This document shows positions 262-29,039 of a stretch of DNA of 64,000 nt, one piece after another. Source of the stretch: an uncultured SAR86 cluster bacterium (GTDB lineage: Bacteria > Pseudomonadota > Gammaproteobacteria > Magnimaribacterales > D2472). Position 1 is the stretch's first letter; each line of letters opens with the position of its first letter. Below the pieces are notes generated by a model. It saw only the letters and a program-made list of their open reading frames with translations. It did no database searches and was not told the origin of the DNA. The position numbers and the translations under genes were made by a program. Location of the stretch: assembly GCA_902602595.1 (NCBI GenBank), contig CACKRJ010000003.1, positions 68,062 to 132,061 of the forward strand. Direction: 5' to 3'.

Positions 262-702
262 TTAATCTTTAAAATCAACTCTATAAATAATTGCATGATC
301 GATCATCTCACGAATCTCTTCATAGCCTTTTGAGATTTCTTCTAACTCAACCTCATTATCTCCATACATTTTCTCTAATTCAGCTTCCACCGCCTTATTT
401 TTTTCTTCCGTCTGCTGCATTGAAGCTAAATCTTTGTATTGCACCGTAATCCAAACATTTGGAGTATCAGCAACGCTCAAAGAGGTCCAAACATTAAAAT
501 CCTCAACATATCCTAGCTTCTTTTGAACATTCATAGCTCGCACCCAAGTTCTATTCAAGTTGGTAAGGTAGGTATCAACATAGTTTGGTTGAACCGCAAC
601 AACAGTTAATTCCATTGGCTCTTGAGAAGGGGTAAAATCTTCATAGATTTCAGCAGCCGCAAACATTGTCATTAATGCAGGTAGAAGTAATAACTTTTTC
701 AT
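262..702 (-). CDS. Secreted hypothetical protein with a single ferredoxin-like (beta-alpha-beta-beta-alpha-beta) module
   Basis: ATG start with AAGGA Shine-Dalgarno. The signal peptide is MKKLLLLPALMTMFAAA. It is the third gene of a tightly spaced trio (18-nt gap to the upstream gene). The alternating hydrophobic strand/helix pattern suggests a dimeric alpha+beta-barrel-like fold. I recognise no family. Confidence 0.6.
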   Translation of the reverse strand: MKKLLLLPALMTMFAAAEIYEDFTPSQEPMELTVVAVQPNYVDTYLTNLNRTWVRAMNVQKKLGYVEDFNVWTSLSVADTPNVWITVQYKDLASMQQTEEKNKAVEAELEKMYGDNEVELEEISKGYEEIREMIDHAIIYRVDFKD

Positions 703-720
703 ATTTTTTCCTTATATTTT

Positions 721-1458
721 TTATCTAATTAAAGTCCCAGAATACATTCTTGAATTTTCACAAGAATATGTTTCTCGAACCGCTTTATTCTCATCAGTAT
801 TGTTTACGTCTGACCAGTAATGGTCTATTGCTTTACCCCACTCTTCCCACTCAGGTGAGCCGTAGGATAGTACAAAATCGTAATCTGCAAGTTGCGCAGG
901 AGCCCCATTGCTAGGTCTAATTAAGCGAGCACTATTTTTAATGCCTGCTTTATGAGAAATTTTCATCTGATTGCTTAGATTGATATAGGCATCTGCAAGA
1001 GTCTTACCCTCTTTCAAATTACAGTAACGATAAGATACTGGATAAGCATTTGATAATTCCTCTGGGCTAAAGTTCGATTCTAAGACCCACTGAACAGCAT
1101 TAAACGCTTGAACACATGTTACTGGTATTGAATCTCTTACTTTTTTAAAGCTTTCACCAAACCAGTTATCTAGAGCTTTACCCATATTTGTTGCTGTATC
1201 AGTATGTCCAACCCAAAACATATCAAAATCAGTAAGTGGAGAGCGGTATCTAGGAACCATGACTGCAGCATCGTAACCAGATTCATCAGTGGCATCCATG
1301 ACCTTGTTCCAAGAAGCAGACCATTTCATAAAGTCATCAAAACTTTTTCCTTCGTTTAAATTACACATCAAGTATTCCGCCCTAATCGGGTCGGGCACTT
1401 CTTGCGACTGAACAAAAAAGCTTGAAACTAATAAAGTTATTAAAAATAAATTTCTCAT
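721..1458 (-). CDS. Secreted hypothetical protein with a tandem duplication of a Cys-containing ferredoxin-like module
   Basis: Signal peptide MRNLFLITLLVSSFFVQS. An internal repeat is visible: YLMCNLNEGKSFDDF...DFDMFWV...MGKALDNWF...VTCVQ versus YRYCNLKEGKTLADA...DYDFVLS...WGKAIDHYW...YSCEN. Confidence 0.6.
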   Translation of the reverse strand: MRNLFLITLLVSSFFVQSQEVPDPIRAEYLMCNLNEGKSFDDFMKWSASWNKVMDATDESGYDAAVMVPRYRSPLTDFDMFWVGHTDTATNMGKALDNWFGESFKKVRDSIPVTCVQAFNAVQWVLESNFSPEELSNAYPVSYRYCNLKEGKTLADAYINLSNQMKISHKAGIKNSARLIRPSNGAPAQLADYDFVLSYGSPEWEEWGKAIDHYWSDVNNTDENKAVRETYSCENSRMYSGTLIR

Positions 1459-1469
1459 AATTTTCGTAC

Positions 1470-2177
1470 CTATGAATTTGGATAGTTATATGTTGCCATT
1501 ACAACCATCATTGTTGTTTTCTTTACTTCGCGCTTAACATTTTTAGAAAATGTGGCAAATGAACTGCTTTGCATAAGATTCTTTTGCTCTTCAATTGCTG
1601 ACTCGATATTTGTAGAGCCTGTGTAGGCATAATGTGAATAGTAGCTATTATTACCATGTGTATGAGCTCTTAGACCATATGAACCAGAGATATTACCATC
1701 TTCAACTTGTGCATCAATTAGTTTTTTCCATGCAGCTGCATACTTATTAGGGTTTTTTACAGACATGTAATATGTTGTATAAACACTGTTATCTGCTTGA
1801 TTATTATTGCCGCCACTCATAAGTTTTCTATTCAATGATTGTTCTACTGGTTCTGAGATATCTTGCACTTCATTTAAGAATGCTCCAAATGTTGGCGTAT
1901 AAAACATTTGAGTTCCTGTTGCCATATCAGCCTCAGAATCATAACTAATAACAACTGCATGAGTTGCATCATCATACCCATTAAATGCAAAGTGCCCTAA
2001 AGTTACAGTTCCAGGAAAGGTCTTCCCAAAATCTGAACTCATTAGACCATCAAATGATTTTGCAAAAGCGGGAACATCAGATACCTTAATTGAATAGGAT
2101 GCAATGTAGCCATCAGCTTGCAAAAATTGAAATGACATCATAAATATTGCCATTGGCAATAAAAAAAGCTTTTTCAT
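1470..2177 (-). CDS. Secreted hypothetical protein with tandem ferredoxin-like modules
   Basis: ATG with GGAGAA Shine-Dalgarno and signal peptide MKKLFLLPMAIFMMSFQFLQA. Two related halves are visible: YSIKVSDVPAFAKSFDGL... versus YYMSVKNPNKYAAAWKKL..., and FGAFLNEV versus FATFSKNV. Confidence 0.6.
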   Translation of the reverse strand: MKKLFLLPMAIFMMSFQFLQADGYIASYSIKVSDVPAFAKSFDGLMSSDFGKTFPGTVTLGHFAFNGYDDATHAVVISYDSEADMATGTQMFYTPTFGAFLNEVQDISEPVEQSLNRKLMSGGNNNQADNSVYTTYYMSVKNPNKYAAAWKKLIDAQVEDGNISGSYGLRAHTHGNNSYYSHYAYTGSTNIESAIEEQKNLMQSSSFATFSKNVKREVKKTTMMVVMATYNYPNS

Positions 2178-2314: not shown

Positions 2315-5215
2315 CTAAAAGTTGTAAGTCCACCTCACTCCATAAGTTGCCTGCTCCCTTGCCCAAATACTTTTATTAAATCCTAACGGTGCTGTAGCCT
2401 CACCAATATGCATTATATTTTCTTCATCAGTGATATTTTGACCATAAATATCTACGCGCCATTTTGGATCATCCACTGAAGGAGTAATAGAAATCATTGC
2501 ATTATACTCAGTCCATGATGGAACTTTATCCCACTCAAGATCGAATAAGGAGGTATAACGCTCATCTTGTTTGTATGCGTCAAGCCTAAAGTTTACATTA
2601 TAATTTTCAGTAATCATGGTGTATTGAATACCCAAATTCATTGAAAGCTCAGGATGAGTTAGTGAATTGCCGCTAATATCTGAGAGCAATCCATCTTTAA
2701 TAGCATCAGCTGGATTACAACCAAGTATTGCACAAGCAGTATTTACCATGACTGAAGAATAAAGATCTCTGGATGCCGTGAGCGATGGCAAATGGCCAGG
2801 CGCCACATTTGGTAAAAAGCTTACAGGTGTTGGTTGTCCAGATACCCTATCGCCATGGAACTCAGCAGGCACAATAAGCGCTTGAGCTGGCCCCCAAAGA
2901 CCACCTTGCCACATATTCCAAATCACAGTTGCTACATCTTTTCTCACCACAAAGACTTCTCCATCAGCAGCATTTTTCATAAGATGCCAATTGCCACAAC
3001 CTGTTGTTAAACAAAGGTCAGCATTTGCTGGATTCATAATCATTTCACCGTTTGCAATTTCTGATTCCTCCCATGCAATACCCATGTTAACTTGCCATTG
3101 AGGAGCATTAACTGGAATCCAAATGAATTCACTTTCAAAGCCCATCATATCCACATCGATTCCCTCGTTAACACGTGTTTTATTCTGAATTTTAGTGACC
3201 TGATAATCTTCAGCATCATACATATAGGCTGCTGCATTCCAGCGCATACCCTGTGCAGGAAAATCAGTTTTAAAACCTACTTCAAATGCAGTTAATTCTG
3301 TGGAGGGAAATACCTGAGGGGTATCTGGATATTTTGCAGGATCTAGTGCTGGGTTAAACCCACCACCTTTGAATCCTTTTGAAATTGATCCATAAACAAG
3401 CGTATTGTCATTCAAAACATAATCAACAACAAATCGGCCTGTATTATTTGCATATTCTGTTTCAGGATCACCTACGGCTCCTGAGGCATACCATGACTGA
3501 CCAAATGCAGGAATTTCATTGCCTGGTAATGGCAAAGCAGTAAATCCATTGCCTTGGCTACCAAATCCAACAACGCTTAAAAATGGTGAACGACCATATT
3601 GTTCTTTGTAGTCTTCGGTTCTTCTTAAGCCCAAGGTGTATTTCAACCTATCATTAGCTTGATAATAGATCTCCCCAAATATAGCTGAACTTCTTGTTGC
3701 AGCAATGCTAGAGGTCCTATATAAGGGAGCATATAACTGCACAGCACCCTGGGGAAACCCTGTTAGAACTGTCGGTGGAAATAATGCTAATGCATCTAAT
3801 CCATTGGCTGCAATATCATATACGCTTAATCCAGAGGCTTCTGAATGAATTGCTCCCAATAAATAGTTCCAGTTTCCATCCAAACTTGATTGCAATCTTA
3901 TCTCAGTGACTTCATTTTCAGTTTCCGGATTATATTGGCGATCATAACCGTCAGGATAATTCATAGTATCAACAATACAGCCACCGTATGATCCCAAAGT
4001 ACCATTATCAAGATTACAGTTTGGGCCATAACCAGTCATAGGAACATTTCCACCAGGGAAAAAAGGATTGTCCTTGAATCTGAGTCGATCATATTCTTCT
4101 GATTCATATACTCCGGTGCGGTCATAAAGTCGATCCTTTCTCGAGTGTGATATGGTCATATCCCAATTATCATTGATTGAATGATTAACAATCAGTTGTG
4201 TGATGTCTTGATCAATAATATATCGTGGATTACCTCTATTGTTTGATTGCCAAAAACCCTTGGGTGCACCAGACATATCTGTCACTGGCGTGTAATCTAA
4301 TATTCCACTTAAAATTGCTAAATTCTCTACATAAGTTGCCATGGGATGGGTTAATTCGTGCACTTGAGGGCCGCCTGGAGTACAACCTACTGCAACGGAT
4401 GGATCGCGCTTACAATACCTATTATTTACATAGTGACGAGTAGAGTCCTCTTCGTAATGATCATGTACAAATAAAATATCTGTGTTGTCACTTAATTGCC
4501 ATGCAAAAGAAAATCTATAAGCAGAGGAATCTCGATTATTAATATGAGAAGTGGGAGCCTTTGAATAAATGTTTTCAATATCACCATCGCGCTCAACAGA
4601 CATAAGCGCAAACCTTGCAGCCATACTGTCACTCAATGGATAGTTTAATGTGTATCTCAATTTCTCTAAGTTATAATCACCGAGGTCAATAGAAACCATT
4701 TGTGTCATTTCATCAAATTTTGGTCTACCCGTAATTAAATTAATAGCTCCTCCAACAGAATTTTTACCATAGAGTGTGCCTTGAGGGCCTCTTAGCACTT
4801 CAATACGCTCCATGTCCAAAAACTCGCCGTCTTGCATGGTTGTGGAGCCAACAGGTAAGTCATTAACATGTATTTCGACTCCAGATTCAGAAGTTTGGGA
4901 TACAGCTAAGTTTGTAATACCACGAATATTAAATGCTCCTCCTGCAGCATCACTACCTTGAAAGTTTAAACTTGGAGTAACAAGTTGCAAATCAGATCCT
5001 GATTGTATTTGTTGGCTTTCAAGCATTTCTGCTGTAAGCGCAGTCACAGCAATAGGAACATCTTGCAGGCTCTCTTCTACTCTTTGAGATGTAACAATCA
5101 CTTCTTCGATTGCACTGACTGCTTTATCTTGAGCAAAAACTGGATTAATCAAAAGGAAAAAACCGCAAGCAATTGCAGTAATTTTTAGACAATAAGACAC
5201 CATCGTAATTTTCAT
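2315..5215 (-). CDS. TonB-dependent receptor (966 aa)
   Basis: Signal peptide ending VFAQD. TonB-box/plug region IEEVIVTSQRVEESLQDVPIAVTAL...IEVLRGPQGTLYGKNSVGGAINLIT. The C-terminal beta-barrel ends ...YGVRWTYNF with a terminal aromatic residue. Confidence 0.9.
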   Translation of the reverse strand: MKITMVSYCLKITAIACGFFLLINPVFAQDKAVSAIEEVIVTSQRVEESLQDVPIAVTALTAEMLESQQIQSGSDLQLVTPSLNFQGSDAAGGAFNIRGITNLAVSQTSESGVEIHVNDLPVGSTTMQDGEFLDMERIEVLRGPQGTLYGKNSVGGAINLITGRPKFDEMTQMVSIDLGDYNLEKLRYTLNYPLSDSMAARFALMSVERDGDIENIYSKAPTSHINNRDSSAYRFSFAWQLSDNTDILFVHDHYEEDSTRHYVNNRYCKRDPSVAVGCTPGGPQVHELTHPMATYVENLAILSGILDYTPVTDMSGAPKGFWQSNNRGNPRYIIDQDITQLIVNHSINDNWDMTISHSRKDRLYDRTGVYESEEYDRLRFKDNPFFPGGNVPMTGYGPNCNLDNGTLGSYGGCIVDTMNYPDGYDRQYNPETENEVTEIRLQSSLDGNWNYLLGAIHSEASGLSVYDIAANGLDALALFPPTVLTGFPQGAVQLYAPLYRTSSIAATRSSAIFGEIYYQANDRLKYTLGLRRTEDYKEQYGRSPFLSVVGFGSQGNGFTALPLPGNEIPAFGQSWYASGAVGDPETEYANNTGRFVVDYVLNDNTLVYGSISKGFKGGGFNPALDPAKYPDTPQVFPSTELTAFEVGFKTDFPAQGMRWNAAAYMYDAEDYQVTKIQNKTRVNEGIDVDMMGFESEFIWIPVNAPQWQVNMGIAWEESEIANGEMIMNPANADLCLTTGCGNWHLMKNAADGEVFVVRKDVATVIWNMWQGGLWGPAQALIVPAEFHGDRVSGQPTPVSFLPNVAPGHLPSLTASRDLYSSVMVNTACAILGCNPADAIKDGLLSDISGNSLTHPELSMNLGIQYTMITENYNVNFRLDAYKQDERYTSLFDLEWDKVPSWTEYNAMISITPSVDDPKWRVDIYGQNITDEENIMHIGEATAPLGFNKSIWAREQATYGVRWTYNF

Positions 5216-7089: not shown

Positions 7090-7845
7090 CTATCTTGAAA
7101 CTTTAAATCCTAATTGGCTTTGAACTAGGGATTCTTCTGACATATCACCTCTAGCAATAACTTGCCCTTCATCGTTGAATTGAAATCTTGTTACTTGGTT
7201 TTCTTCATATTGAAGATCAGTAATATCGTCTGTAAACTTATGCCAAGTCCAAACATAGACTACGTTCTTGCTTCTGTTTGCAGCAACTTCAATAATCTCA
7301 TATTCATCTGCACCCCAATCCTCGCCATTTGAAGATTCAATATTTTCCATAATCTGAGCTTTGCTGTATCTAGGACTCACTAACCCTCTGTTAAAAGAAA
7401 CCTCTACATCCTTACCATCTCTATTTACAACAGCTTTAACGGGTTGACCTGGAAGACCTGTAAAAGATAACACACCATTTTCTCTATTTTCTCTAGTTGC
7501 AGGAACGCCTGCAACAGATACAAAAGTGTCACCGCTTTGCAGGACGCCAACAGCAGGACTGTTCTCAATCACCCAATCAACGACCATTTGGTCGTTACTA
7601 GGATCAAAATTAAACCCAAAGCCAATAAATCTTCCAGGATAATTATAACCATCATCAGACATATGTTTTTTCACAACGGCCATAAAAGCATCTTTATCTG
7701 AATAGCCAGCATCAATCCATGATTTTGCAGTCTTAATATTATTCATCATTACTTTCTGGCTAACTTTAGATTCCTCATGATGGCCAGCAAAGATTTGAGT
7801 ACTTAAAAATAATGGAACTATTAATAATGTTTTTAAAAGATTCAT
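7090..7845 (-). CDS. Secreted protein with a PDZ-like domain apparently inserted in an NTF2/SnoaL-like fold; mature N-terminus GHHE
   Basis: Signal peptide ...LSTQIFA followed by GHHEESK. The PDZ-like segment is GRFIGFGFNF...ENSPAVGVLQSGDTFVSVAGV...GQPVKAVVNRDGKDVEVSF. The flanking helices (NNIKTAKSWIDAGYSDKDAFMAVVKKHM) and the C-terminal sheet (EIIEVAANRSKNVVYVWTWHKF...RFQFNDEGQVI) look NTF2-like. Confidence 0.55.
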   Translation of the reverse strand: MNLLKTLLIVPLFLSTQIFAGHHEESKVSQKVMMNNIKTAKSWIDAGYSDKDAFMAVVKKHMSDDGYNYPGRFIGFGFNFDPSNDQMVVDWVIENSPAVGVLQSGDTFVSVAGVPATRENRENGVLSFTGLPGQPVKAVVNRDGKDVEVSFNRGLVSPRYSKAQIMENIESSNGEDWGADEYEIIEVAANRSKNVVYVWTWHKFTDDITDLQYEENQVTRFQFNDEGQVIARGDMSEESLVQSQLGFKVSR

Positions 7846-7974
7846 TTTTCTCCAATTTATTTATTAAGTGTTGAATATATCACTTATGAGACTAGTTTAT
7901 TTTAAAAAGCTAAAAAATAATCAACAATAAATGAAATACTTTTCGAGAGTATTTTTATCAATTATGCTGAATCA

Positions 7975-10050
7975 ATGAAAAATAAAAATAACTACACTAA
8001 TGGTTTGCTTTTAATGCAAAAACTTCTGTTACTTTCATTAGTACTCATGATAAGTCCTTTTTCTAATTCAAAAGAAAACCTTGCTAAGTTTGAACCAATG
8101 GATGTGTTTGAGCTTGAATGGGCTTCTGATCCACGTGTATCACCTGATGGAAAAACCATTGTCTATGTTCGCAAATCAAATGACATCATGAAAGACCGTG
8201 AACGTTCTAACTTATGGCAAATTTCTGCAGATGGCAAAGATCATCGACCGCTTTATTCTGGCCTAACTAGTATCAGATCTCCGCGTTGGTCTCCAAATGG
8301 AGAAATGCTCGCTTTTATATCTAACGATACAGGGTCACAACAAATTCATGTTCGGTGGATAGATAATGGAGAAACTGCGGTCATTTCTCAATTACAAGCT
8401 TCACCCTCAAATCTAACCTGGTCACCAGATGGGAAGTGGCTTGCTTTTACCATGAATGTTAAGGCGCCATCTGAAACCATTGCTGAGCCTCGAGAAAAAC
8501 CTGAAGGCGCTAGTTGGGCTAAAAATCCTATAACGGTAACAACAACCCAGTATCAATATGATGGACAAGGAATTGTTGAACCAGCATATCGCCATGTATT
8601 TGTTGTTCCTGCAGATGGAGGCTCAGCACGACAACTCACTAATGGTAATTTTAATCATTATGGGTCTCTAGCTTGGTCGCCAGACAGTAATCGTATTTTC
8701 TTTTCAGCTTATCGCTCTGATGACTGGGAGCTTGTAAGTGATGAAGCGGATATTTATTCAGTAAATTTAGGCACTAAAGATATTAAGCAAATAACGAATC
8801 AATCTGGTGCTGAACGCTCACCAGTCATATCACCAAATGGGAAGTTGATTGCATTTAATCAAGAAGAAAGGCGGCCTCTTGCCTACACGCCAGATCAAAT
8901 CGCAATCATGGATCTGAATGGAAATAACATCCGCTTGCTAACAGAGGATCTAGATGGAGATGCGAACAATTTACATTGGGCTAATGATAGCAAGTCGCTT
9001 TTCTTTGCTTATGATGAGCGAGGTATTAGAAAGATCGGTCAAGTCACCACAAAAGGTAAACTTAAAGAGATCACACATGGGCTAGGCGGAACGACACTCG
9101 GAAGACCCTACCTTTCAGGAGGCTTCCATCTTGCGAATAATACTATTGCATATACTCACGGGACTTCTGAGCGACCGGCAAATGTTGCTGTTATTAATGA
9201 AGAAGAAATACAAATTTTAACAGCCTTAAATGACGATCTTTTGAGCCATCGGAAACTAGGAAAAGTCAAAGAAATTACCTACAAATCCTCTTTCGATGAA
9301 CAGGAAATTCATGGTTGGTATATTACCCCGCCAGATTTTGATCCTTCAAAAAAATACCCATTAATTCTTGAAATTCACGGTGGGCCGCATCTGGCTTATG
9401 GCCCCTATTTCTCAGCTGAGTTACAAATCATGGCAGCAGCTGGATATGTTGTTTTTTATAATAACTATCGCGGAAGCCTGTCATATGGAGAAGATTTTGC
9501 CCTTCTTTTGCAATACAAATATTCTAGTGAAGAAGATTTTGCTGATCATATGTCAGGCATAGACTCATTGATTGATCTCGGATTTATTGATGATACAAAC
9601 CTTTTTATTGCTGGTGGCAGTGCTGGTGGAATCGCGACTGCATACGCAGTTGGGTTAACGGATCGTTTCAATGCTGCAGTTGCTGCTAAACCTGTCATTA
9701 ACTGGTTAAGCAAACCACTGACTGCTGACTCTATGGTCGGTCAAATCTATCACCAATTCCCAGGCCCTCCTTGGGAACATCTTCAGCATTACTGGAAAAG
9801 ATCACCATTATCGTTAATGGGGAATGTGACTACCCCTACAATGTTGCTGACAGGTGAAAATGATCGAAGGACGCCTATTTCAGAAACTGAACAATTTTAT
9901 CAAGCCCTTAGATTAAAGGGAGTAGATAGTGCGATGGTTCGCCTTCCAGATACTTCTCATGGAATTGCAAGCAGACCCTCTCGACTAATTACAAAAGTTG
10001 ATCATATTCTTGCTTGGTTTGAGAGATATAAAACTAAGACCATACAATAA
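7975..10050 (+). CDS. S9 family serine peptidase (prolyl oligopeptidase / acylaminoacyl-peptidase type) with N-terminal beta-propeller
   Basis: Repeated SPDGK/SPNG propeller motifs. The nucleophile elbow is IAGGSAGG. The C-terminal catalytic region is ENDRRTP...PDTSHG. A hydrophobic signal (MQKLLLLSLVLMISPF) means the true start may be the internal Met at residue 14. Confidence 0.85.
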   Translation: MKNKNNYTNGLLLMQKLLLLSLVLMISPFSNSKENLAKFEPMDVFELEWASDPRVSPDGKTIVYVRKSNDIMKDRERSNLWQISADGKDHRPLYSGLTSIRSPRWSPNGEMLAFISNDTGSQQIHVRWIDNGETAVISQLQASPSNLTWSPDGKWLAFTMNVKAPSETIAEPREKPEGASWAKNPITVTTTQYQYDGQGIVEPAYRHVFVVPADGGSARQLTNGNFNHYGSLAWSPDSNRIFFSAYRSDDWELVSDEADIYSVNLGTKDIKQITNQSGAERSPVISPNGKLIAFNQEERRPLAYTPDQIAIMDLNGNNIRLLTEDLDGDANNLHWANDSKSLFFAYDERGIRKIGQVTTKGKLKEITHGLGGTTLGRPYLSGGFHLANNTIAYTHGTSERPANVAVINEEEIQILTALNDDLLSHRKLGKVKEITYKSSFDEQEIHGWYITPPDFDPSKKYPLILEIHGGPHLAYGPYFSAELQIMAAAGYVVFYNNYRGSLSYGEDFALLLQYKYSSEEDFADHMSGIDSLIDLGFIDDTNLFIAGGSAGGIATAYAVGLTDRFNAAVAAKPVINWLSKPLTADSMVGQIYHQFPGPPWEHLQHYWKRSPLSLMGNVTTPTMLLTGENDRRTPISETEQFYQALRLKGVDSAMVRLPDTSHGIASRPSRLITKVDHILAWFERYKTKTIQ

Positions 10051-10116
10051 AACAACTGTGATAAAGTTATTACCCATTAGTTTTACGATATATATTTATA
10101 TATTTTAGGAGATGAT

Positions 10117-10650
10117 ATGAATAAACTACTTTCAATAATTGGCTTGTTATTTATAGCTCAAATTACATTTGCCGGTCATCACGAATCTGGACATATGAAA
10201 AAAGGGGCTGTTATTGGCTATGAGATCTCAGAAGATGGGACAAAGTTAGACATTGTTGCTGGGGACCCATCTCTTGTAAAAATTTGGGTTGATTACGTTG
10301 AAGCGCACAATCAACGCGATCTTGAAGCAATTGATAGAACCAATGCTGATGACTTAGTAGGCAAAGCTGCTAATGGGGTAATTGTGAATGGTTCTTCAGA
10401 GCATGCTGCTTTTCTTAAGAACTGGTTTGACACATCAAATCCAATATGGGAATTCGTCTATGCTATGGCAAATGATGTGCCTCAAGCAGATGGCTCTATT
10501 CATCATTGGGTGACCTCTTCTTACAAAGTAACCGATACCATTGATGGTAAAGAGGTGGTTGCAAGAGAATCGTTTGATGTGAGGATTGAAAACAACAAAA
10601 TCAAAGAGATCATAGTAGCCTCTCGACAAGTTCTTTATGAAGAAGAATAA
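10117..10650 (+). CDS. Secreted SnoaL/NTF2-like protein; mature N-terminus GHHE
   Basis: GGAG Shine-Dalgarno. Signal peptide MNKLLSIIGLLFIAQITFA followed by GHHESGH. The NTF2-like pattern is VKIWVDYVEAHNQRDLEAIDRTNADDLVG...HHWVTSSYKV...FDVRIENNKIKEIIV. Confidence 0.6.
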   Translation: MNKLLSIIGLLFIAQITFAGHHESGHMKKGAVIGYEISEDGTKLDIVAGDPSLVKIWVDYVEAHNQRDLEAIDRTNADDLVGKAANGVIVNGSSEHAAFLKNWFDTSNPIWEFVYAMANDVPQADGSIHHWVTSSYKVTDTIDGKEVVARESFDVRIENNKIKEIIVASRQVLYEEE

Positions 10651-14699: not shown

Positions 14700-15098
14700 T
14701 TATTTACTTAAATTATCCAGTGCCTCTGACATCTTTTTTTGCAGAGCTCCTATGGCCTGCAGTGGTCTGATCATTACTTTAAAGTCAATAATTTTACCCT
14801 CATCATTCCAGCGAATAATATCAACCCCATTAACAGAAATGTCTCCAATATAGGTTTCAAATTCTAGAACGCTATCAAGGCCATCTACAAGTTCACGAAC
14901 ATATTCAAATCTGTCCATATCAAAAGTTTGACCAGCGCCCATTAAATAAATTTTTGACATCTCTTTTCCTTCGATAGGTTTAAAAACAATTGGGGATGTA
15001 AAGACACAGGATTCATCAAGAATTTCATCTAACAATTTTGGATCATTGGAGTTTAAGCCTTCATGCCACTTTTTTAAATATGAGTGTGTTTTATTCAT
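14700..15098 (-). CDS. SnoaL/NTF2-like small protein
   Basis: MNKTHSYLKKWHEGLNSNDPKLLDEILDESCVFTSPIVFKP...VNGVDIIRWNDEGKIIDFKVMIRP matches the SnoaL-like pattern. The track ORF extends to a TTG at 15137. I prefer the ATG at 15098. Confidence 0.6.
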   Translation of the reverse strand: MNKTHSYLKKWHEGLNSNDPKLLDEILDESCVFTSPIVFKPIEGKEMSKIYLMGAGQTFDMDRFEYVRELVDGLDSVLEFETYIGDISVNGVDIIRWNDEGKIIDFKVMIRPLQAIGALQKKMSEALDNLSK

Positions 15099-15202
15099 TT
15101 GAGTATTAGAAACTGTTGATGAGGAGGATGCAAGCAATGTTTTAGGATAAAAGAAGCCCCTGCAACTGAATTGTGAAAAATTTAAAAAAAGCGGCTAAAA
15201 GA

Positions 15203-27445: not shown

Positions 27446-27697
27446 CTACAAAACTAAAATAGTAAATATCATAGAAAGTAGCACTAAGTCAGGAGGAGTT
27501 TCTTGCTGATAGCTTGATTGAGTTGATTTAGTTTCTGAATCTGAGTCTAAAATTTTTGCAGGCTCTGCTTGTGCCACCTCCTCTACAATTTCCTGAGTAG
27601 AAGTTTCCTGAACTGCATCTATATCTGCAGGAAGAATTGGATTATCTGCTAAAACAAATAACGGCATGATTAACAGGCTAAGTTTTAAAAATTTCAT
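27446..27697 (-). CDS. Small secreted acidic protein with a C-terminal hydrophobic tail
   Basis: Signal peptide MKFLKLSLLIMPLFVLA, an acidic Ser/Thr/Glu-rich middle, and a C-terminus PPDLVLLSMIFTILVL*. No recognisable family. Confidence 0.4.
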   Translation of the reverse strand: MKFLKLSLLIMPLFVLADNPILPADIDAVQETSTQEIVEEVAQAEPAKILDSDSETKSTQSSYQQETPPDLVLLSMIFTILVL

Positions 27698-27769: not shown

Positions 27770-28576
27770 CTATTTCTTAAATAACAATGTCATTCTGTCT
27801 GATTCACCTATCTTGGTATATTTTGATCTATCTTTATCTTTGAGTCGGTATGAAGGAGGCAGAGTCCAAACCCCTTTAGGATGATCAGCAGTATCCTTTG
27901 GATTAGCATTTATTTCAGATGTTGCAATAAGCTTAAAGCCAACCTCTAATGCAGTTTCTATTGCAAGAGACTGAGATACATAACCACTGGTTTTCATAAA
28001 TTCCATACTTGATCCCTCTGGTGCACGATGCTCCACAACCCCAAAATGCCCACCAACTTTCAAAGACTCATAAACTTCTTGCATTACTTGCTTCATTGCA
28101 TCTCGTGCTAACCAATTGTGAAGGTTTCTAAACGTAACTACTAAATCTTGTGTTTCTGGTTTAGTAAAGGCTTCAGATGGAGGTGTTTCAGCTGTAATCA
28201 CTGTCACGCCAGCAAATAATGGATTTGATGCAACTTTTTTATCATATGCCTCTCTGGAGCGTTTGTAATAACCACTGCCTTGAGGATTGTAATGCGTTAC
28301 CGAAAGATTCCCATTTTCTTTTAGATAGGGAGCAAGAATCTCGGTGTACCAACCTCCTCCCGCTGCTAACTCTAAAACATGCATGTTTGGTTTAATCTTA
28401 AAAAATGAAAGTGTCTCATAGGGATTTCTAAAATCATCTCTTGCAGAATATTTAACATTTCTATCAGAATTATTTACTGCATCTAGTAAAGGATCTTCAT
28501 GATGAGCAGCTTCTAAATAAACAAAAAAACTAACAGTAATAATTAGTAAACTTAAGGTGTGATAAATATGCTTCAT
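27770..28576 (-). CDS. Periplasmic class I SAM-dependent methyltransferase-like protein; mature N-terminus AHHE
   Basis: SAM motif I reads VLELAAGGGWYTEILAP. The signal peptide MKHIYHTLSLLIITVSFFVYLEA is followed by AHHEDP. The ATG at 28576 has GGAG 6 nt upstream. The track start at 28588 lacks a Shine-Dalgarno. Confidence 0.75.
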   Translation of the reverse strand: MKHIYHTLSLLIITVSFFVYLEAAHHEDPLLDAVNNSDRNVKYSARDDFRNPYETLSFFKIKPNMHVLELAAGGGWYTEILAPYLKENGNLSVTHYNPQGSGYYKRSREAYDKKVASNPLFAGVTVITAETPPSEAFTKPETQDLVVTFRNLHNWLARDAMKQVMQEVYESLKVGGHFGVVEHRAPEGSSMEFMKTSGYVSQSLAIETALEVGFKLIATSEINANPKDTADHPKGVWTLPPSYRLKDKDRSKYTKIGESDRMTLLFKK

Positions 28577-28763
28577 GTAAATCTCCATTTTTATATTAAT
28601 GTTAGTCTAGTATGAAAACTAATAATAGGATATCAAATGGAATGGTTTAAAAAATTAGATAGTTTATTTTTTATTTTAGGTAGATCTATGCTTGAGCTAT
28701 ATATTATAGGTCCTAGATTAAGCAAAGTTTTTGATATTACTGGAGGCTTATTGGTGCTAGCAA

Positions 28764-29039
28764 CTAAAGATAGAAACTAATAGTTTGTATAACTCCAATC
28801 AATCCTAGCCAGCCAAGATAGGCTAATCTTGCAATTGAAGTGTTTTGATGATTCCAAACTCCAAAAGCTCCAAAAGCTCCGCAGGCTCCGAGATTGGGAA
28901 TCCAAAATCCAGCCAAGCCTAAAAAACCTAGCAAGCCCAATAATCTAATTGGGCCGCCGGACTGACTTGGATGAACTTTATTAAGAAGACCTGTTAAACC
29001 GATAAGACCGAATAATCCGACCAGCCCCAGGTAACTCAT
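28764..29039 (-). CDS. Small Gly/Leu-repeat membrane protein
   Basis: Three segments follow the pattern LGLxGLxGLxG: YLGLVGLFGLIGLTGLL, LLGLLGFLGLAGFW and YLGWLGLIGVI. There is also a GAFGAFG tandem. It sits 3 nt downstream of the RRM gene. Confidence 0.45.
   Translation of the reverse strand: MSYLGLVGLFGLIGLTGLLNKVHPSQSGGPIRLLGLLGFLGLAGFWIPNLGACGAFGAFGVWNHQNTSIARLAYLGWLGLIGVIQTISFYL

Follow-up and report, generated by a model that had tools for sequence, protein, structure and literature searches.

Three exported proteins encoded in a 64,000-nucleotide stretch of the genome of an uncultured SAR86 cluster bacterium (contig CACKRJ010000003.1, positions 68,062 to 132,061; hereafter the window) begin, immediately after the predicted signal-peptide cleavage site, with Gly-His-His-Glu, Gly-His-His-Glu and Ala-His-His-Glu. 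Comparison with orthologues indicates that the conserved element of this N-terminal tag is X-X-His, that is, a His at mature position +3 with positions +1, +2 and +4 free to vary. An initial annotation of the window had proposed that these N-termini form the amino-terminal Cu(II)/Ni(II)-binding (ATCUN) arrangement, and our computational tests support that interpretation in the refined X-X-His form, with the binding of metal remaining a prediction. We think it probable, though not strongly so, that removal of the signal peptide creates a hybrid X-His-His/ATCUN site for Cu(II) or Ni(II) on a flexible tail.

The three open reading frames, 7090-7845 (minus strand), 10117-10650 (plus strand) and 27770-28576 (minus strand), translate as the initial annotation had read them, with the N-termini MNLLKTLLIVPLFLSTQIFA↓GHHEESK, MNKLLSIIGLLFIAQITFA↓GHHESGH and MKHIYHTLSLLIITVSFFVYLEA↓AHHEDP respectively (the arrow marks the predicted cleavage site). 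The first encodes a 251-residue PDZ/NTF2-like protein whose signal peptide, residues 1-20 (7786-7845, minus strand), has a Lys in its n-region, a hydrophobic core and I-F-A at positions -3 to -1; its predicted mature N-terminus Gly-His-His-Glu comprises residues 21-24 (7774-7785, minus strand), with His23 at mature +3. The second is a 177-residue SnoaL/NTF2-like protein with a signal peptide of residues 1-19 (10117-10173, plus strand) ending in T-F-A, and a predicted mature N-terminus Gly-His-His-Glu at residues 20-23 (10174-10185, plus strand). The third, of 268 residues, is an exported class-I methyltransferase-like protein in which residues 1-23 (28508-28576, minus strand) form the signal peptide and residues 24-27 (28496-28507, minus strand) the predicted mature N-terminus Ala-His-His-Glu. 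Its start at the ATG at 28576 is backed by the starts of its orthologues, which begin MKNIY..., and an upstream ATG at 28588 was rejected on this ground. All three have the anatomy of Sec-exported substrates of signal peptidase I, with a Lys near the start giving a basic n-region, an uncharged hydrophobic core, a small or aliphatic residue at -3 and Ala at -1, and none has a lipobox Cys at +1 or a twin-arginine (RR) motif. Cleavage positions here and throughout were assigned by the -3/-1 rule and by our own heuristic signal-peptide predictor.

The placement of these strings is far beyond what chance would give. His makes up 2.1% of the 19,244 residues of the window, in which HH dipeptides number 12 in total, and a six-frame scan of the 64 kb (open frames of at least 50 residues) finds only three xHH[E/D] strings, all of them at the sites described above. 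The probability of HH falling by chance at +2,+3 in at least three of the ~13 signal-peptide proteins is 2.6e-8, and that of all three xHH[E/D] strings landing exactly at +1 of a signal-peptide protein is ~3e-10.

The orthologues show which part of the tag is kept. Scanning one genome per species for the PDZ/NTF2 family gave 80 loci, the nearest in SAR86-cluster single-cell genomes and metagenome-assembled genomes (91% identity to AG-313-P16 and 84% to SAR86E) and the remoter in unclassified marine Gammaproteobacteria, Porticoccaceae/SAR92, Halieaceae (Luminiphilus, Halioglobus, Parahaliea), Woeseia and marine Bacteroidota. In an alignment of 25 sequences at 38-91% identity (alignment A1), His23 is an invariant column alongside the core residues of the fold, and the family has no other invariant His or Cys. 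Around this His the tag takes the forms A↓GHHE, S↓GHHE, A↓AHHE, A↓DHH, A↓NHH, S↓MHHE, A↓DNHG, A↓DGHG, A↓DDHK, A↓TNHE and S↓GGH; tagged cultured relatives include Parahaliea aestuarii S2-26 (A↓DDHE, locus L118) and SAR92 H231 (A↓GHHG, locus L133). The locus of Gammaproteobacteria bacterium TMED104 (L072) has ambiguous bases (X) in the N-terminal coding region, and its tag is partly readable as xxxHHxEG.

The SnoaL-like family is the most uniform, since 110 of the 111 members that combine a hydrophobic leader with a His close by read A↓[G/A/D/S/E]HH, nearly always A↓GHHE; A19, H21 and H22 are invariant in its alignment (A2), as are two further His within the domain, H64 and H96. SAR86 orthologues of the methyltransferase at or above ~67% identity mostly read [A/S/T]↓[A/G/S/D]HH. 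In its sister clades the tag has been replaced (AHH to ANQ, as in T↓ANQ), the protein has become a lipoprotein, or His stands at +1, and in the wider family the tag is rare, reappearing sporadically as A↓DNHA and A↓DDHG. One sister clade (P0394 and P0409-P0436) carries a conserved His at predicted +1, in the form [A/S/G]↓H-[D/N]-L, in place of X-H-H.

Taken over all three families, X-H-H is the majority form and many orthologues keep His 3 alone; the residues observed at position 2 across all variants are H, N, G, D, S, V and A, and Pro occurs at neither position 2 nor position 3. The tag noted by the initial annotation is thus kept in orthologues of all three families, as its conservation check anticipated, but [GA]HHE is not the true invariant, which on these alignments is X-X-His. 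An ATCUN site is defined by a free N-terminal amine and a His at position 3, with any residue other than Pro at positions 1 and 2 (PMC9599918, PMC10515390). A fixed His at +3 with +1, +2 and +4 free matches this definition of an NH2-X-X-His site, and the position rule invoked by the initial annotation holds for the three window proteins and for orthologues of all three families.

That the pattern is a chance or compositional coincidence, or a feature of the nucleotide rather than the protein sequence, might be argued from the fact that only three cases were originally seen and from the compositional bias of signal-peptide flanks. Against this stand the two placement probabilities given above and the persistence of the motif across hundreds of orthologues. 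Moreover, the His codons at +3 vary synonymously (CAT 29, CAC 13) at the same ratio as in the background (940:461), which argues for selection at the level of the protein and led us to reject a nucleotide-level motif. As a background control, the 56 coding matches to TTYGCNGGNCATCATGAR (FAGHHE) in viral contigs essentially never follow a signal peptide. We regard the chance explanation as refuted by the conservation and placement statistics, and give it almost no weight.

The tag is also found beyond the three starting families. For this census the heuristic predictor was applied to the window and the 80 loci (1.37 Mb), yielding 340 non-lipoprotein candidates in 181 families, or 178 families and 301 proteins once the three starting families were removed. 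In these 178 families, with frequencies weighted by family, His stands at 3.0% at +1, 5.1% at +2 and 4.8% at +3, then falls to ~1.2% from +4 to +12, compared with 1.85% in mature bodies. Since our rule for the h-region ends it at charged residues and at His, the predictor itself might have produced such a peak; no comparable peak at +1 to +3 is seen for Lys, Arg, Asp or Glu, and for this reason we rejected that explanation. Five more families (one probably a spurious open reading frame) have HH at +2,+3, where 0.1 would be expected, and none has it anywhere from +4 to +12. The enrichment among exported proteins that the initial annotation had proposed to look for is therefore present, with a His peak at +2/+3 outside the families in which the tag was first noticed.

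New carriers in the census include SnoaL_3, SnoaL_4, Cupin_2 and glyoxalase-like proteins and several families with no Pfam match, among them an unannotated family of 217-220 residues in which all five members are tagged, in differing forms (DNH, GGH, SSH). Overall, the tag recurs mainly in marine Cellvibrionales-type Gammaproteobacteria: in the sampled flanks, His +3 in other families was counted in 9 of 63 proteins from Cellvibrionales-type genomes, 8 of 84 from unclassified Gammaproteobacteria, 1 of 99 from SAR86 and 0 of 41 from Bacteroidota. Within SAR86, the tag seems to be limited to a few families.

The carriers differ in fold, much as the initial annotation had assigned them (PDZ/NTF2-like, NTF2-like and methyltransferase). 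The 177-residue protein has a weak Pfam SnoaL_2 match, and its AlphaFold2 model (mean predicted local distance difference test score, pLDDT, 85.7) finds its best Foldseek matches in 3i0y and 3d9r, which are SnoaL/ketosteroid-isomerase-like; after the tag come a tail (SGHMKKGA) and the SnoaL/NTF2-like domain (10186-10650, plus strand). The 251-residue protein has a weak PDZ_2 match and a model of pLDDT 85, for which Foldseek returns Ctp/DegS PDZ domains and ketosteroid-isomerase/limonene-epoxide-hydrolase folds, each for its own part and with low overall TM-scores. Behind a short flexible linker, the remainder of this protein (7090-7773, minus strand) is thus predicted to be an NTF2-like fold with an inserted PDZ domain. 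The methyltransferase-fold domain (27770-28495, minus strand) matches Pfam Methyltransf_12, Methyltransf_25 and Methyltransf_11, all below their curated cut-offs, and belongs to a family of 3,023 members in a representative search. Sequence searches found no solved structure for the SnoaL-like family or for the methyltransferase.

In both AlphaFold2 models the tag falls in the only low-confidence segment (pLDDT <50 at residues 18-24 of the 177-residue and 19-24 of the 251-residue protein), and the models place it on a flexible tail of ~5-20 residues preceding the folded domain. The initial annotation considered the proteins unrelated, and this stands to the extent that profile-profile comparison aligns only 26 columns, covering the signal peptide and the motif; two of the three carriers nevertheless share the NTF2-like fold class, with no detectable homology between them. 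Nor do the three genes share any extended identity in their 5' DNA. On these two grounds we rejected shared ancestry or cassette transfer of the tag, which was neither inherited with a domain nor recently copied between genes.

The variety of folds also bears on a rival explanation, namely that the His is an intrinsic functional residue of each protein, turned back towards the active site to serve there in catalysis or as a ligand, and not a portable tag at all. The methyltransferase sister clade with [A/S/G]↓H[D/N]L, in which the His lies a few residues ahead of a conserved LLxAV...R helix, would suit such a role, as would the SnoaL-like family with its other invariant domain His (H64 and H96). 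However, the same tag is carried by at least eight unrelated families and folds, its tail is of low confidence or disordered in both models, several clades drop it while the rest of the protein stays well conserved, and the PDZ/NTF2 family offers no further invariant His or Cys with which to complete a site. We therefore consider an intrinsic His improbable.

A portable ATCUN-type site would need a free amine, and the PDZ/NTF2 orthologues bear on this point. X-X-His is present in 48 of the 56 signal-peptidase-I-type orthologues and in none of the 22 lipoproteins (Fisher p = 4e-13, on manually corrected assignments and ignoring phylogeny), the latter belonging to Bacteroidota, Balneolales, Luminiphilus/Halieaceae and one SAR92. 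Lipoprotein forms have no free amine, because their N-terminal Cys is acylated. Likewise Gln, which would cyclise at +1 and so block the amine, is more frequent at +1 than any other residue among the exported proteins of our data set (13.9%) and yet never occupies +1 of a tag (p ~0.015). The lipoprotein contrast, the avoidance of Gln and the orthologues with Asp, Asn or Met at +1, which speak against a later cut, lend indirect support to the view that the tag would depend on a free amine.

Elsewhere in the PDZ/NTF2 family the tag has been discretely lost, by a small indel or substitution, in some clades (SFA↓SNEDTARSW compared with LFA↓MHHESSKEDVARGW), and in others it has expanded into tails of metal-binding type: a His/Met-rich A↓AHHEMDEHMGHKHM in Luminiphilus (locus L114), A↓DHHNDHHHGM in locus L113, and a long, His/Asp-rich S↓GGHEKDEHDHDHYHG in Woeseia (loci L122 and L123).

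Such tails raise the possibility of a generic His-rich metal antenna in which the amine plays no part, and in which His-His-Glu, together with His or Asp close by, serves to acquire or sense Zn(II), Ni(II), Co(II) or Fe by binding it. The near invariance of Glu at +4 in the SAR86 forms, the His/Asp-rich tails of the Woeseia orthologues, and the existence of such tails on the zinc-related Escherichia coli proteins ZinT (HGHHSH) and ZraP (HGGHGM) all speak for an antenna. Even so, the spacing between the cleavage site and the His is constant, where a loose His-rich patch would be expected to drift, and many variants have one His only (DNH, DGH, DDH, GGH), too few for a zinc site. The tag is also found in no lipoprotein orthologue, though lipoprotein linkers could hold a His patch equally well. 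The Zn affinity of short X-His-His peptides is, in addition, weak, because Zn is unable to deprotonate the backbone amides (PMC9599918). Our view is that an antenna of this kind is unlikely, if the least easily dismissed of the alternatives.

Tagged genes of different folds lie within a few kb of one another in several genomes (L107, 9983-15746; L127, 1577-6207; L098 and L100, 9983-19500; L096, 9977-10798), with three tagged genes within 6 kb in each of L107 and L127. Their neighbours are mixed, including NnrS, a fatty-acid hydroxylase and a Zn-dehydrogenase-type oxidoreductase. This clustering of differently folded carriers suggests that the tagged periplasmic proteins form a functionally linked set. 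As a separate observation, three small untagged exported proteins of 146, 245 and 235 residues with no Pfam or NCBIfam match are encoded in the window at 262-2177 (minus strand), adjoining a TonB-dependent receptor (2315-5215, minus strand), and orthologues of these proteins are tagged elsewhere (A↓DHHA in L127 at 1696; S↓DNHD in L106 at 10854).

Clustering would also be compatible with the tag being a sorting, processing or recognition signal for envelope machinery, serving for secondary proteolysis, for targeting to the outer membrane, vesicles or medium, or for docking of a partner, as the initial annotation had allowed. Consistent with this, the tag stands exactly at the signal-peptide junction, and the signal peptides of the two neighbouring window genes are alike, each with a Gln a few residues ahead of F-A-G-H-H-E. 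What makes us sceptical is that only His +3 is fixed while +1, +2 and +4 are free, a pattern unlike recognition motifs that fits the geometry of a chelate. Further, library scans of the window proteins found no Pfam or NCBIfam model covering the tag, no candidate processing gene is consistently nearby, and the His/Met- and His/Asp-rich expansions would be unexpected of a signal. A sorting role thus seems unlikely to us.

We therefore return to the ATCUN-type reading, for which the following mechanism may be proposed. The three genes would give Sec-exported periplasmic proteins, in which the predicted cut by signal peptidase I, behind the Ala at -1, would leave a free alpha-amine on Gly or Ala followed by His-His-Glu. 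Cu(II), and less tightly Ni(II), would then be held in a square-planar four-nitrogen (4N) chelate formed by the amine, two deprotonated backbone amides and the imidazole of His3. The extra His at position 2 would make this a hybrid X-His-His site, capturing Cu(II) rapidly and then passing to a redox-silent 4N complex, so that each carrier could act as a high-affinity periplasmic trap for Cu(II) (or Ni(II)). The chemistry on which this draws is established for peptides: H2N-X-Z-His binds Cu(II) in the same 4N mode in a largely redox-inert complex, H2N-X-His binds it faster in a 3N mode, and the chimera H2N-X-His-His unites both properties, with reported Cu(II) affinities of 1e12-1e14 per molar (PMC9599918). 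The likeliest role would be the buffering or redox-silencing of copper entering the periplasm of surface-ocean bacteria, and an alternative would be the capture of trace Cu or Ni for hand-over. For the tagged proteins themselves, we infer the exact cleavage site, the binding of metal, which metal is bound and the physiological role.

Several points weigh against this reading. The cleavage sites are predictions of our heuristic, and metal binding is likewise predicted. In some methyltransferase orthologues the residue at -1 would have to be Thr or Ser, an unusual choice (SHT↓AHH and SET↓AHH are examples), and a cut one residue later would expose His1-His2 in these types. None of the carriers is a known metal-handling protein, and no consistent metal-homeostasis genes lie near them in the window or in locus L107. 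Glu at +4 is strongly conserved in SAR86, though ATCUN chemistry has no need of it. The tag is gone from several lineages, including the cultured SAR86 strain HIMB1674 (A↓GNS), and must be dispensable there. The lipoprotein contrast involves only about 4-5 independent lineages. Finally, every locus in the census was chosen around a member of a single tagged gene family, and tagged genes are clustered, such that the enrichment we report may exceed the genome-wide rate.

The G+C content of the window (36.6%) and its five TonB-dependent receptors are in keeping with an origin in SAR86. Among the neighbours of the carriers are TonB-dependent receptors, an amidohydrolase, an S9 peptidase and a CoA-transferase. 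Judged as candidate dedicated copper-homeostasis proteins, the carriers have neither homology to known copper folds nor a location in a metal-resistance operon. The methyltransferase gene is flanked by genes for an 83-residue exported acidic protein with a hydrophobic C-terminal stretch (...PPDLVLLSMIFTILVL; 27446-27697, minus strand) and for a 91-residue Gly/Leu-repeat membrane protein (28764-29039, minus strand). At 14700-15137 (minus strand) the window encodes a second SnoaL_2-type protein, of 145 residues and with no signal peptide or tag, a cytoplasmic counterpart of the fold encoded at 10117-10650.

If the hybrid X-His-His/ATCUN reading is right, these N-termini would be the first natural bacterial examples of the X-His-His motif, and would show how a cheap, modular Cu(II) site of picomolar or tighter affinity can be placed on any exported protein through the residues that follow the signal-peptide cut. 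They would also represent a class of periplasmic metal buffering unrelated to Cus, Cop and Pco, in very abundant heterotrophs of the sunlit ocean. A broader and speculative proposal, which we would not expect to hold but consider worth stating, is that in surface-ocean Gammaproteobacteria (SAR86, SAR92/Porticoccaceae, Halieaceae and relatives) tags on ordinary periplasmic enzymes amount to a distributed, redox-silent Cu(II) buffer. The affinity expected of such tags (1e12-1e14 per molar) would lie in the range of the strong copper ligands of seawater and of its free-Cu2+ levels. Given such a match, the tags could help organisms with streamlined genomes to tolerate copper, and lysing cells could release the tagged proteins as a supply of strong copper-binding ligands. 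For annotation, an X-X-His mature N-terminus could be flagged automatically from signal-peptide predictions.

Among known systems, the ATCUN sites of serum albumin (DAHK), hCtr1, histatin-5 and hepcidin resemble the tag in having a free amine and a His at position 3 on a flexible N-terminal end, and differ in that the amine of the tag is predicted to be made by bacterial signal peptidase I in the periplasm. The hybrid H2N-Xxx-His-His, known from synthetic Ala-His-His and from amyloid-beta 12-x, has the identical tripeptide logic to GHH, GHH and AHH, and the AHH peptide of PMC9599918 is the predicted N-terminus of the window methyltransferase; this motif is known, however, from designed peptides and a human peptide fragment rather than as a conserved feature of bacterial exported proteins. 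The histidine brace of LPMO, CopC, PmoD and YcnI is likewise a copper site relying on an N-terminus exposed by removal of a signal peptide, but it requires His as residue 1, whereas the His of the tag is at +3 (and +2) and the predicted +1 residue is Gly or Ala. We rejected a brace here, since moving the cut one residue along would bring Phe or Glu to -3 and, among orthologues, Asp, Asn or Met to -1; these last three residues cannot occupy -1, and the D/N/M variants therefore exclude the shifted site.

In the outer-membrane copper protein PcoB, copper handling and efflux depend on His and Met residues of a disordered N-terminal region (PMC12509749). This region resembles the expanded orthologue tails such as AHHEMDEHMGHKHM, with the difference that the ATCUN-like motifs of PcoB are internal and belong to a copper-resistance operon, whereas the tag is predicted to lie at a free N-terminus. 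The nearest natural precedents are E. coli CusF (AQA↓NEHHHETM) and ZinT (AFS↓HGHHSH), both periplasmic and both with X-X-His and more His (and, in CusF, Glu) directly behind a signal-peptidase-I site, as in the tag; ZraP reads AFA↓HGGHGM. An electron paramagnetic resonance study of the Cu(II) form of CusF (Astashkin et al. 2005) is listed in PMC4792856. The Cu(II) site concerned is reportedly the N-terminus. Both CusF and ZinT are devoted to metal handling and encoded in metal-regulated operons, whereas the tags described here stand on NTF2-like, PDZ-containing, methyltransferase, cupin and glyoxalase-like proteins with no metal-homeostasis context. In keeping with the expectation of the initial annotation, full-text literature searches (ATCUN in periplasmic or exported proteins, marine bacteria, SAR86 with copper, and CusF) returned no description of the tag as a recurrent feature. 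Unlike CusF, ZinT and PcoB, the tag has come and gone repeatedly in families that are unrelated, with X-His-His-Glu as its dominant form. Our conclusion from this comparison is that the chemistry of ATCUN and X-His-His and the precedent of CusF and ZinT are known, and that what is new is the recurrent use of such an N-terminus as a portable tag that marine Gammaproteobacteria place on their periplasmic proteins.

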